Source: an uncultured Pseudomonadales bacterium (GTDB lineage: Bacteria; Patescibacteriota; Microgenomatia; UBA1400; MFAQ01). From it: 64,000 bases of DNA. Position 1 is the first letter of the stretch. Every line of letters begins with the position of its first letter. This document shows, in pieces, positions 29,401-32,400 of this stretch. The stretch spans positions 11,916 to 75,915 of the forward strand of contig CAZENT010000002.1 in the NCBI GenBank assembly GCA_964513845.1, read 5' to 3'. Position numbers: made by a program.

Positions 29401-32400
29401 GATCAGTTCTCGTGTTTAGATATTTCGCCAACCACTCACAAGACCTAGTAGTCAAAAACACCACTCTCGCTCGTCTTCCTTTTCCGATTATGCCAAATTC
29501 ACGAGCCTTAAGATCAATTTTGTCGATATCTAGCTTTGCCAACTCAGACACACGTAAGCCAGTAGAAAAAAGAATTTCCAGTATTGCTCTGTCTCTCAAA
29601 CCAGCCATGGTTGAGGTGTCGGGAGACGTCAACAATCTTTCAACCTGGTCTCTATCCAAAAACTTAATACGATGACCTTCACTTTTTGGCAGTTCTACTT
29701 TTTCAGGAGATAAAGACTTTACCCCTTTCCTTGCGCAGTATTTTAAGAATGCACGCAGGGCAATCACATAATAGCTTTGAGTGGTAGGGGAGAGTAGTTT
29801 GCCATGAACATCCTCAAAACGGCTCAAATACAATCGATATCTTCTTACCATTTCATAGGTCAACTTTTCGATATATTCTTGTTCATAATGTTTTTCAAAC
29901 CAAACACGGAACGTTTTAAGATAGTGGGAGTAGTTACGAATAGTAAACTTGCTGTAATTTTTTTCCACCTCAATGTAGCTCAAGTATCGTTTTATATGAA
30001 CCCTCAAACCCAAATCTAGCGCTTGTTTTTTTGCCATCTATATCAATATATCAAATATTGTGCGACATAAAACTCACCCTAATATTATTCACATTTGCAT
30101 TAGGAATTGCACTAGGCCTGACACTGGGTTACTTTATCTAAAAAAAACAAAACATAATCCCCGCTAGTTAGCGGGGATTATTAATAATTATTTTTCAATA
30201 ATAACCTAAATTTTTCACACCATGAAAATAGGGGAGGTAGAAATAGGGGAGACCAAAAAAGAATTTGGTAAATAGATAGATATAAGTTATCCACAATCAT
30301 TTATTAATAATTATTTGCGTCAATAAAAAATACAAATTGAAAATAAAAAAATAAATTAAATATTTATTATATAAATTCTTACCTGGTCGAAAAATAATAG
30401 AAATAAGAATTAAAAAATAAATAAGTTCAACTTCACTCATTTAAAGCGTCGTCAATCTAAAAATGCGCACAACTCAAGCACCTCTTTAATCTATTAAAGA
30501 AATCTCAAAGGCATATCAAAACTCTCCAAAAAGCCGCCCCGTACAATGCCCCTAAAACGGCTTCTGGAACTTTTTGTGAGTACTTACTCATTAGCATTTA
30601 GCCTCAACTTTTCGGGTTTATCTATGGATAAGCACAGATTGAGGCTACCAGGCACAAACCTCAAAAGAATCAACCAATAAGCACCAAAGGGGAGCCAAAA
30701 CCGAAAAGTCTTCGGGATTATATACGAAATCAGATGATGGGTGAACATATTCCATTTGGAGCCCAACTTTCTGGGTTACGTCGCAAAAGTATTATTGTGC
30801 GACGTATCATAAATCATTCCTCTCCAGGAGAACTACCAGGATAAACAGGGAAGTGCAGAAGAATAACATCCTTCTGTATCCCAATACTATCTCTTAAGAT
30901 GGATAACGACAAATAATAATTAATTGTTAATTAATGATTATCTTTCGCCCTACCTCTGCCAAGGCCTGTCGTGTTTTCTTCATTCTTTGCCAACTGTATC
31001 AAACCCACTCACCTAGCAAGTTATCCACATCACTGCTAATATTTCGTGAAAACTTCCCTATTTCGTGAAAACTATTATAGGATGTGTGTTATAGGATAAT
31101 TATTATAGGATACGTACTATAGGACTTCTCCCCCTTTTCTCTAGCTACCAAGAAAAATTTTTTACTCGTTTTGATAACAATTCTTTTACGCCTACCCCAC
31201 CCACGAAGTCGTCAAAAATCCCACCACAATAATAATCAATATTGTCACCCCATACTCCACAAGGCTCTCCAGGTATACCCTATTCGAAAGTCTTTGTTCC
31301 AAGATGCCAAACAATGCATACAAACCCGAGGTCAATATGAGGCCACCCATAAATGGTTTTACAGGCCAAAAACAAAGTACTCCAGACACAATGGCTATTA
31401 CCCAGCTGGCAGAAATTGCATATCTCCAAACCTGAGGCCCAAAGTTATTCTTCAGATCCACACTCCAAAAACTTGGATATCCGAGCACAAAAGACACGGC
31501 AAACGAGATTGGCATTACCCACCAAAAAGCCAGCTTCAAACTCAGGGCGACTGTAAAGAAAAACAAGGAAGTAACTAGGGTCAATATAAAGTTTACCGAA
31601 CGAGCGGCCCTAAAAAGTTGAATCGTTCGAATCGAAGCAACAGAAAATATATTTTCAATTAACAATATTCCATACAAACCCAAACCAACCAAAATAAAAT
31701 ACACAATCTTAAAAATTCCGGCCAGCAACTGAGATGTTTCTACAGATAATGTTTTTCCAAACATTCCTGGAAACGCAGTCGGTAAAAAATTGGAAAACAA
31801 ACCACTGCCCAAGGTAAACATCATTGGCAAAACAATTAAGGTGATCCACTCAACACCCTTTAAATCGTCAAACAACACCCAAACTGACAAGACGTAAGAC
31901 ACCGCCGCAACTGCCATTACCAAGCCAAATCTATAATCAACCTGAACCAAGCTAGTCAACCACAGAAAAAACGCGATTAATGAACTAACCAAAATAAACT
32001 TTGTTCGTTTTGACATAATTACTCTAAATTCGACCAAACATCGACCACATCATCCAAGTCAGACAAGGCTTCCAGCAACTCCACAACCTTTTTTCCGGAC
32101 TCCTCATTCAAACCGATCATCGGAATGGGAGAAATCGACTTCATATACGACACAGATCCAGGGCCACCTAGTTTAGCTTCGTGTTTGTTCAATACCGAGT
32201 TCAGTTCTGCAGCAGTTCGATTACGATTGTCTGTCACAGCCGTAACCAAAATACCCACACCTTCACGACTATACGCTTCATACACGACTTCCTCTGATGT
32301 ATTTGCCCCGCCGACTCCCAAGCCCTTTTCGATAGCCCGATTAATATTCTCCATCGGCATATTTACCGACCGAGCTTCATCAACACAAGCTCTCAAAAAT

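Follow-up and report, generated by a model that had tools for sequence, protein, structure and literature searches.

The window analysed here, a stretch of 64,000 nucleotides (nt) of contig CAZENT010000002.1, contains at positions 30038–31191 a gap bounded by the start of a xer recombinase gene and by the stop codon of a gene encoding a DUF5656 membrane protein, both of which are read from the minus strand. Homologs of the DUF5656 protein identify the source organism as a member of Candidatus Collierbacteria (Microgenomates, candidate phyla radiation (CPR)). The gap accommodates a 28-bp imperfect palindrome resembling a dif site, a copy of one arm of this palindrome in front of xer, DnaA boxes, a very AT-rich tract and two sets of short repeats in opposite orientation (Table 1). 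Three genes, gyrB (21488–23470), gyrA (24016–26673) and a holB-like gene, lie at most 9 kb from the gap. Genes on both sides of the gap are mostly located on the minus strand, and 39 of the 56 genes of the window are on the G-rich strand. A preliminary description of this DNA had proposed the gap as a candidate replication origin or DnaA-controlled hub, and most of the features that it listed are confirmed. The open reading frames (ORFs) of the supposedly gene-free gap are short and unconserved only, and both gyrase genes are found nearby as reported. The three exact DnaA boxes and the two one-mismatch sites occur where they had been placed, the hairpin is present with 12 pairs, and the tandem repeats are recovered as two TATTTCGTGAAAACT copies and four TATAGGA units at a 14-nt period. 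The tract resembling a DNA-unwinding element indeed displays the highest AT content of the window. The statement that dnaA and dnaN lie outside the window also stands, a search of the window for dnaA giving no match. The dif-like Xer site and its half-site, which constitute the most solid component of the locus, had been missed.

The dif-like site and its half-site

The 28-bp site displays an 11-6-11 architecture, with two near-identical arms around a 6-bp centre, and is located about 740 nt from the xer gene. Relatives of the locus comprise 38 GTDB species, found via the DUF5656 protein, and about 100 metagenome contigs. The site is present in 36 of the 38 relatives retrieved through this neighbouring protein. 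More than 100 metagenome contigs carry its 24-nt core without a change, and the DUF5656, YebC and GyrA proteins of these contigs are only about 30, 45 and 55% identical, respectively, to those of the window. A scan of the Joint Genome Institute (JGI) metagenomes with a degenerate core yielded at least 120 contigs, some of them 0.8–1.09 Mb long, with one copy each, a count that covers the fetched stretches of these contigs. The context of the site, in the order xer, repeat, DnaA box, two GTGAAAA motifs, DUF5656-like gene and yebC, is encountered again in about 100 metagenome contigs. The window itself holds one full 28-bp site and one half-site. Between lineages the arms are kept and the centre varies (GTATTA, GTTACA or GTTACC), and in one clade both arms change symmetrically.

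The half-site reproduces the right arm of the repeat, and its motif occurs twice in the whole window. In all 26 relatives that bear xer, the half-site lies 4–55 nt upstream of this gene, including those in which xer is located 4.7–7.8 kb from the conserved block. In addition, the half-site co-varies with the repeat arm of the same genome, giving TACACGAC or TGTACGAC variants. Since the half-site follows the variants of the arm, a single co-evolving protein would read both sites, and this protein is most simply Xer. We infer that Xer binds the 28-mer and resolves chromosome dimers there, and that its binding to the half-site represses its own gene.

The product of the xer gene is a tyrosine recombinase in which Pfam recognises the Phage_integrase, SAM-like, Intein_splicing and LAGLIDADG_3 domains. 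An intein-less ortholog establishes full-length matches to the NCBIfam models of XerC (247 bits), XerD and XerA, the scores ranging from 212 to 247 bits and falling under the equivalog cut-offs. Intein-less xer orthologs border the same gap in relatives.

The intein that splits xer in the window carries a LAGLIDADG homing endonuclease and occupies about 27982–29230, its insertion point being about 45–50 residues ahead of the Xer C-terminus. In most relatives xer is intein-less and its product comprises 315 residues, while long xer genes are sporadic (L053, L064, L068 and partly L035). To our knowledge, no case of an intein in a Xer recombinase has been reported.

The same site is found in Candidatus Moranbacteria, a lineage of a different CPR superphylum that was identified by GltX homologs. 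In the four species concerned (L164, L177, L181/L182 and L179/L180), the site stands alone in a gap of about 110–420 nt between convergent gene blocks, and the GC skew calculated over all positions flips at the site from about +0.1/+0.2 to about −0.1. Three of these four species have the same arms as the window, the left arm being degenerate in L179, and the central 6 bp read GTATTA in L164, GTTACC in L177 and L181, and GATACA in L179. As a lone site at a point of gene convergence at which the skew flips, the Moranbacteria counterpart thus behaves as dif. The arms, the single occurrence and the association with xer point in the same direction in the window, where the 28-mer is very probably the dif site.

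A repeat of the form CATGTCGCAAAA[GC]T[GA]TTATTGTGCGACACG, followed by TATGGCTCTGTTGAGCCAT, was also observed in two higher-GC contigs that are not CPR-like, L165 (inverted repeat at 1063) and L174 (inverted repeat at 2124), and a dif-type consensus may extend beyond CPR bacteria.

Conservation of the gap and its coding and RNA potential

The gene order TPR–yebC–DUF5656–gap (about 1.1 kb)–xer, with gyrA further along, and the order of the motifs within the gap are kept in the 38 GTDB species and in about 100 metagenome contigs, the gap of the relatives typically measuring 1.0–1.2 kb. With an nhmmer profile, the segment of about 650–700 nt located 3′ of DUF5656 (about 30510–31190 in the window) is alignable in every Collierbacteria locus. 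Most of these loci also keep the left module and the AT-rich peak, about 850–1050 nt away from the DUF5656 stop. Discrete motifs are kept in the primary sequence and the spacers between them are variable, which is the signature of protein-binding DNA. As judged from this pattern, the gap is protein-binding DNA for chromosome maintenance and neither a gene nor an RNA.

A hidden protein gene was considered and rejected, as no reading frame survives across strains or species. At gathering thresholds, Rfam produces no match in the window or in eight relatives, and in E-value mode the gap gives terminator-like sub-threshold matches only, all at the species-specific hairpin. For a 32-species alignment of 980 columns, RNAalifold was used to calculate a consensus fold on each strand. 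It comprises 17 pairs on the plus strand and 25 pairs on the minus strand, which essentially correspond just to the hairpin of the 28-bp repeat, with consensus energies of −15 and −21 kcal/mol over about 700 nt. Covariation, counted on the plus strand, is confined to the 28-bp inverted repeat. The single-sequence folds display z-scores of −3.5 (plus strand) and −1.9 that find no support in conservation. The structured RNA that the preliminary description had entertained, pointing to Rfam as the place to look, is rejected on the basis of the empty Rfam result and of the missing conserved fold in the 32-species alignment.

The two repeat modules at the ends of the gap are related. The three motif types of the left module, read on the plus strand, recur in the right module when it is read on the minus strand, and the two inverted modules bracket the AT tract, the motifs M1–M8 and the 28-mer. 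The repeat types of the locus are GTGAAAA, TAGGGGAG and ATCCYATAAT. In most relatives the left module starts with the GTGAAAA palindrome, continues with one or two copies of TAGGGGA and ends with ATCCCATAAT or TTATCCACA, about 900–1050 nt from the DUF5656 stop. On the right side, the GTGAAAA pair with a spacing of 19–23 nt is invariant in the relatives, and the four TATAGGA(T/C) units follow each other at a 14-nt period between 31075 and 31124. GTGAAAA resembles a parS half-site, but the motif is not a parS palindrome. M1, which may be read as a promoter (TACAAT/TAGAAT), lacks a −35 element.

Table 1 Features of the gap between xer and the DUF5656 gene and of the genes that adjoin it, in window coordinates. 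A dot marks features without strand.
Feature	Position	Strand	Remark
xer, XerC/XerD/XerA-type tyrosine recombinase gene, intein-interrupted	27836..30037	−	Pfam, NCBIfam
Half-site TTGTGCGAC, equal to the right arm of the repeat; putative Xer operator	30058..30066	+	about 20 nt upstream of the xer start
Insert confined to this species, with box 1 and the hairpin	about 30075–30181		
Box 1, DnaA-box-like TTATTCACA, unconserved	30085..30093	+	in species-specific insert
Terminator-like hairpin, 12 pairs, species-specific	30154..30181	−	unalignable in most relatives
Left module, near-palindrome TTTTTCAC-N-ATGAAAA, then two ATAGGGGAG	30211..30251	+	
Box 2, TTATCCACA, abuts the AT tract, one clade only	30287..30295	+	kept in the 9 closest species
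AT-rich tract, candidate DNA-unwinding element	about 30296–30440 (from 30293)	.	0.85–0.89 AT
M1, CCCCGTACAATGCCCCTAAAACGGCTTCTGGAAC, most conserved block, left edge of the universal core	30537..30570	+	more than 20 invariant columns in 32 species
M3, TTCGGGTTTATCTATGGATAA, weak DnaA-box-like sites	30611..30631	+	TTATCTACA in other clades; here TTATCCATA on the minus strand
M4, TTCGGGATTATATACG, second TTCGGGWTTAT copy	30711..30726	+	TTATCTACA in other clades
dif-like core site ACGTCGCAAAA / GTATTA / TTGTGCGACGT, 11-6-11 imperfect palindrome	30778..30805	.	arms match 10/11
M8, CAACTGTATCAAACCCACTCACC	30991..31013	+	relatives: ACTATATCAA...ATCA
Box 3, TTATCCACA, universal box	31021..31029	+	conserved across the lineage
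Two TATTTCGTGAAAACT copies (31040, 31059), GTGAAAA motif, 19-nt spacing	31040..31073	+	
Two CGTGAAAAC copies	31045 and 31064		
Right module, four 14-nt repeats (ATCCTATAAT-type), then GGGGGAGAAG	31073..31134	−	
CTTCTCCCCC	31126–31134		
DUF5656 membrane protein gene, start ATG at 32016	31192..32016	−	conserved block always directly 3′ of the gene
yebC, short	32019–32543		next after DUF5656

Several side observations concern the gap and its borders. The species-specific insert carries a 27-codon hydrophobic ORF that starts with TTG at 30058 (MCDIKLTLILFTFALGIALGLTLGYFI), contains box 1 and is followed by the hairpin, a strong two-way terminator-like structure; the ORF may encode a small membrane peptide or may have arisen by chance. 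The YebC/TACO1 protein is a short form of 174 residues, in which the C-terminal Pfam domain model is matched over the first third only. This short form is conserved in the orthologs and is always found beside DUF5656 and the conserved block. The stretch from the AT-rich side of the block to xer is an insertion hot spot, with inserts of 0.8–7 kb that include genes of the Fic, EamA, MFS, pentapeptide-repeat and YibE/F types (L020, L022, L024, L025, L029, L031, L033–L035, L038 and L051).

The Logan contig L005, which comes from another sample, is 98.4% identical to the window, and its differences are gathered in three patches at 30572–30777, 29200–29400 and 27600–27800. The patch in the gap, with about 45 changes in about 200 nt, spans M2–M4, and the neighbouring genes differ past 27536. 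The pattern suggests recombination with a less closely related strain. In the source samples, short-read assemblies (L001–L004, L008, L009 and L012) end at 30129–30149, 30416–30438 and 30735. The breaks at the hairpin and in the AT tract are likely caused by the low coverage of extremely AT-rich DNA, strain heterogeneity being another possible cause.

DnaA boxes, GC skew and the proposed replication origin

The three exact TTATNCACA boxes of the gap, at 30085, 30287 and 31021 (boxes 1–3), are all on the plus strand, and the one-mismatch sites are TTTTTCACA at 30211 and TTATCCATA at 30623 on the minus strand. The preliminary description had estimated that chance would give far fewer than one exact box per megabase. 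This is incorrect, as shuffling predicts about 2.7 boxes per 64-kb window, and two further exact boxes are located at 46926 and 59983. The departure from chance resides in the local clustering, with three exact boxes against 0.058 expected from the composition of the region itself and none of 20,000 simulations reaching three. One-mismatch sites in the gap number 2, against 0.39 expected.

Box 3 keeps its strand and its position, about 240 nt from the 28-bp repeat and about 170 nt from the DUF5656 stop, in 36 of the 38 relatives, the remaining two relatives displaying TTATTCACA or TTATCTACA instead. It is also present in most of the distant metagenome loci. Across species, box 3 and the weak TTATCTACA sites of M3 and M4 are the conserved ones. 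The stretch holding box 1 is without counterpart in most aligned relatives, and L020 alone has TTATACACA at a similar place. The AT tract contains the most AT-rich 100 nt of the window, the runner-up reaching 0.81, and lies 340–480 nt from the 28-bp repeat. In most GTDB relatives the AT peak is located at −850 to −940 from the DUF5656 stop, and 36 of 54 metagenome loci have it on the side of the repeat that faces xer, the median distance to the repeat in the metagenome loci being about 380 nt.

The GC skew of the plus strand is negative throughout the window. When restricted to third codon positions (GC3), the skew is negative for the genes of both strands and on both sides of the gap, with values of −0.31 on the left and −0.27 on the right, a difference that is not significant (56 genes). 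One-signed skew was also observed in 27 GTDB loci and in 13 of 13 metagenome loci with long flanks, the exception being a weakly positive flank of L164. A step in the magnitude of the skew at the locus, seen in pooled flanks, is absent from the 56 window genes; it was attributed to gene-specific effects and set aside. Kadnikov et al. (2020; PMC7143001) reported that the cumulative skew falls monotonically round the whole chromosome in three complete genomes, those of Candidatus Collierbacteria RIFOXYD2_FULL_45_13 (MFAS01000001), Candidatus Beckwithbacteria and Candidatus Chazhemtobacterium Ch65. The authors proposed either a short distance between origin and terminus or replication of the unidirectional theta type, and neither site was located (PMC7143001). 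Locus L024 of the present comparison comes from MFAS01000001, on which it occupies about 0.81–0.83 Mb. In the literature, no later localisation of origin or terminus in these lineages was found. Since the skew is monotonic in this lineage, a search for the skew minimum is uninformative here rather than contrary to an origin. By itself, the one-signed local skew would point to a mid-replichore position of the locus. The skew test put forward in the preliminary description, applied to the window and its relatives, reveals no sign change, and it is inapplicable to this lineage.

Among the window genes, a GC3 skew close to zero or positive is displayed by the ORFs at 39270–43190, 49141–49581, 52531–53154, 13128–13550 and 16082–16717. 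Nearly all other genes, on either strand, range from −0.1 to −0.6. The outliers include a 1304-aa protein with a weak fn3 match, and recent acquisition or inversion is a possible cause of their skew.

The reading that we favour, with slightly better than an even chance of being correct, is that a dif site next to xer is fused with the replication origin, so that the locus would form the origin–terminus junction of a unidirectionally replicated primary chromosome. A more specific form of this proposal, with a DnaA-type origin at most about 0.5 kb from dif, one-way replication and the inverted iteron modules serving as a fork trap, is put forward tentatively and falls somewhat short of even odds. 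If the G-rich strand is the leading strand, forks would cross the window leftwards, reaching dif from the DUF5656 side and departing on the xer side. If replication ends at dif in this lineage too, as in Moranbacteria, the fork that departs would originate beside dif on the xer side, which is where the AT-rich peak lies. An origin would agree with box 3, with the weak boxes of M3 and M4 and with the proximity of gyrB, gyrA and the holB-like gene. DnaA anchored at the conserved box or boxes would open the AT tract, and one fork would run leftward round the circle of about 1 Mb. The other fork would be halted at once, possibly, and this is speculation by analogy with the ter sites of plasmid R1, by proteins bound to the inverted repeat modules. 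Replication would end at dif, where Xer would act. The origin suggested in the preliminary description is thereby retained as the best reading of a functional non-coding element with real DnaA boxes and a tract resembling a DNA-unwinding element, with the reservation that box 3 is the sole box conserved throughout the lineage.

Several points weigh against an origin at this place. Box 3, the only perfect box that is ancestral, is separated from the AT tract by about 600 nt with dif in this interval, which is an unusual geometry for oriC. In other clades the position homologous to box 2 reads (T)TATCCCATAAT, and box 2, as the alignment indicates, is a clade-specific derivative of a ATCCCATAAT-type motif. 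DnaA-trios, for which the rule is a box, a spacer of at most 16 bp and at least three trios (PMC8287927), were read by hand, and no convincing array was recognised in the gap. Just trivial (.T.) runs in AT-rich DNA follow box 2, and the run CTG CTA ATA TTT that follows box 3 is unconserved in the relatives. Using an E. coli DnaA sequence as tblastn query, no match to dnaA was obtained in the window, in 42 GTDB loci or in 120 metagenome loci. Neither dnaA nor dnaN occurs in the window or in about 160 related loci, flanks of up to 10 kb included, and a better cluster of DnaA boxes may exist beside dnaA elsewhere. The 56 genes of the window display no step or reversal of the skew at the locus, a result that neither supports nor refutes the proposed junction. 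In Moranbacteria the shift restricted to GC3 is weak, the skew shift being largely an effect of gene orientation. The direction of the forks and the end of replication follow from two assumptions carried over from other bacteria, namely that the G-rich strand is the leading strand, which agrees with the 39 of 56 genes located on it, and that dif marks the terminus.

The same observations were weighed under other explanations. The main rival, a locus restricted to dimer resolution, is rather unlikely, and it draws on the strongest part of the data, the evidence for dif. Xer would autoregulate, the flanking motifs would be accessory or regulatory in the manner of the accessory arms of cer and psi, the DnaA box would couple recombination or xer expression to the cell cycle and the origin would be located elsewhere, perhaps close to dnaA. 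The single ancestral DnaA box, the lack of a nearby dnaA and of a local skew signal agree with this explanation, and DnaA acts as a transcription factor at single boxes. It requires, however, either that dif is off the terminus in this lineage or that something other than replication underlies the one-signed skew, and a one-signed skew over whole chromosomes (PMC7143001) is hard to produce unless origin and terminus adjoin. The same site occupies a terminus-type position in sister CPR lineages, and the conserved AT peak and the ordered motifs, which flank the site on both sides over about 1 kb, go well beyond the known accessory sequences, which are one-sided.

The remaining explanations are all improbable. 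The inward-facing TATAAT-like motifs at both ends of the gap, the terminator-like hairpins and the plus-strand fold z-score of −3.5 could reflect unannotated non-coding RNA genes, or long leaders, that start from −10-like motifs (ATCCCATAAT or CACAAT on the plus strand at about 30290, and three to four ATCCTATAAT on the minus strand at 31073–31125). This is quite improbable, given that no Rfam family is matched, the 32-species consensus fold is essentially empty on both strands and the hairpins are unconserved outside the close clade. It is very improbable that the gap is a DnaA-titrating or -reactivating cluster outside oriC, of the datA, DARS or B. subtilis DnaA-box cluster (DBC) type, which would time initiation and lie beside xer and dif by chance: the boxes are clustered in the same orientation in a non-coding setting at a conserved chromosomal position, but a single box is conserved across species, most of the conserved sequence is unlike a DnaA box and both the dif/xer link and the AT tract would be left unexplained. 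A mobile element, remnant or resident, in the form of an iteron-type plasmid or phage origin or of an integrative mobile element exploiting Xer (IMEX), is the least probable of all. Iteron-like repeats in inverted modules, the adjacent recombinase with its homing intein, the low GC content at 27–31 kb and the accessory genes between the block and xer in some relatives could be taken as its marks. Against these stand a single-copy locus that is strictly syntenic across lineages with about 30–55% protein identity to the window, insertions that are at least about 270 nt from the repeat and never at it, and the absence of a replication initiator or mobility gene. The origin of an integrated element, as considered in the preliminary description, is unlikely in view of such deeply conserved synteny. 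An IMEX in which the segment from the half-site to the repeat would be the Xer cassette was rejected, as the conserved core runs about 270 nt past the repeat and the insertions of the relatives lie outside this core.

The plan regarded as near-universal for bacterial chromosomes is bidirectional replication that runs from oriC to an opposite terminus marked by dif. Under the more specific form of the proposal, applied to Collierbacteria and their relatives, this would be the first known case in which a primary bacterial chromosome combines origin and terminus in a single locus. The locus provides a concrete and conserved candidate for both of the unlocated sites of the unidirectional proposal of 2020 (PMC7143001), which it makes testable by read depth. 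In addition, the 28-mer is a candidate dif consensus for CPR bacteria of two superphyla that could be used to find termini and to check the assembly of metagenome-assembled genomes, and together with the half-site it offers a way into a Xer system that is apparently self-regulating through this half-site.

Comparison with known systems

The single-recombinase dif/Xer modules, which include xerS-difSL of streptococci and lactococci, XerH/difH and archaeal XerA/dif, share with the window a 28-bp 11-6-11 palindrome, an adjacent gene of the Xer family and one copy of the site per replicon, here one per fetched stretch. The near-symmetric arms suggest that a single recombinase acts at the window's site, as in these modules. 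Its sequence is unlike the dif sites of E. coli and B. subtilis, with 14 of 28 matches to E. coli dif in a hand alignment. In contrast to dif systems, the locus displays a copy of an arm in the xer promoter, no skew shift in Collierbacteria-type genomes and a 1-kb array of conserved motifs that includes a DnaA box. With the bacterial oriC of E. coli and B. subtilis the gap has in common consensus TTATCCACA boxes on the plus strand, an adjacent tract of more than 85% AT, an intergenic position and the proximity of gyrB, gyrA and a holB-like gene. It differs from oriC in having one ancestral box, separated from the AT tract by about 600 nt that include dif, and in showing no clear DnaA-trios, no adjacent dnaA or dnaN and no skew minimum.

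The closest parallels to a dif site beside an origin are found in replicons of other kinds. In the unidirectionally replicated chromids of Pseudoalteromonas, dif2 is located 4–27 kb from ori2 (PMC7858055) and tus lies beside the origin (PMC7858055, PMC10331603). The one-signed GC skew and the position of dif next to the origin, a candidate origin in the window, are shared. These chromids are plasmid-derived and RepA-dependent and the direction of their replication is proven by read depth, whereas the window would belong to a primary, presumably DnaA-dependent chromosome, on which the candidate origin and dif would be about 0.5 kb apart at most. In plasmid R1, two inverted ter sites beside oriR enforce one-way replication, and ter sites in the promoters of tus and rtp give autoregulation (PMC10331603). 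R1 oriR and the Tus-Ter and RTP-Ter systems thus resemble the window in the opposed repeat modules by the candidate origin and in the copy of a site in the promoter of a neighbouring gene. The repeats of the window display no evident sequence similarity to Ter sites, and fork arrest by them is purely conjectural.

The plasmid sites cer and psi have accessory arms of about 180 bp on one side only. They share with the window a Xer core site flanked by conserved non-coding DNA that could bind architectural proteins. Sites of the ArgR, PepA or ArcA type were not recognised in the gap. In contrast to cer and psi, the site of the window is chromosomal and is embedded in about 1 kb of conserved DNA that extends on both of its sides.

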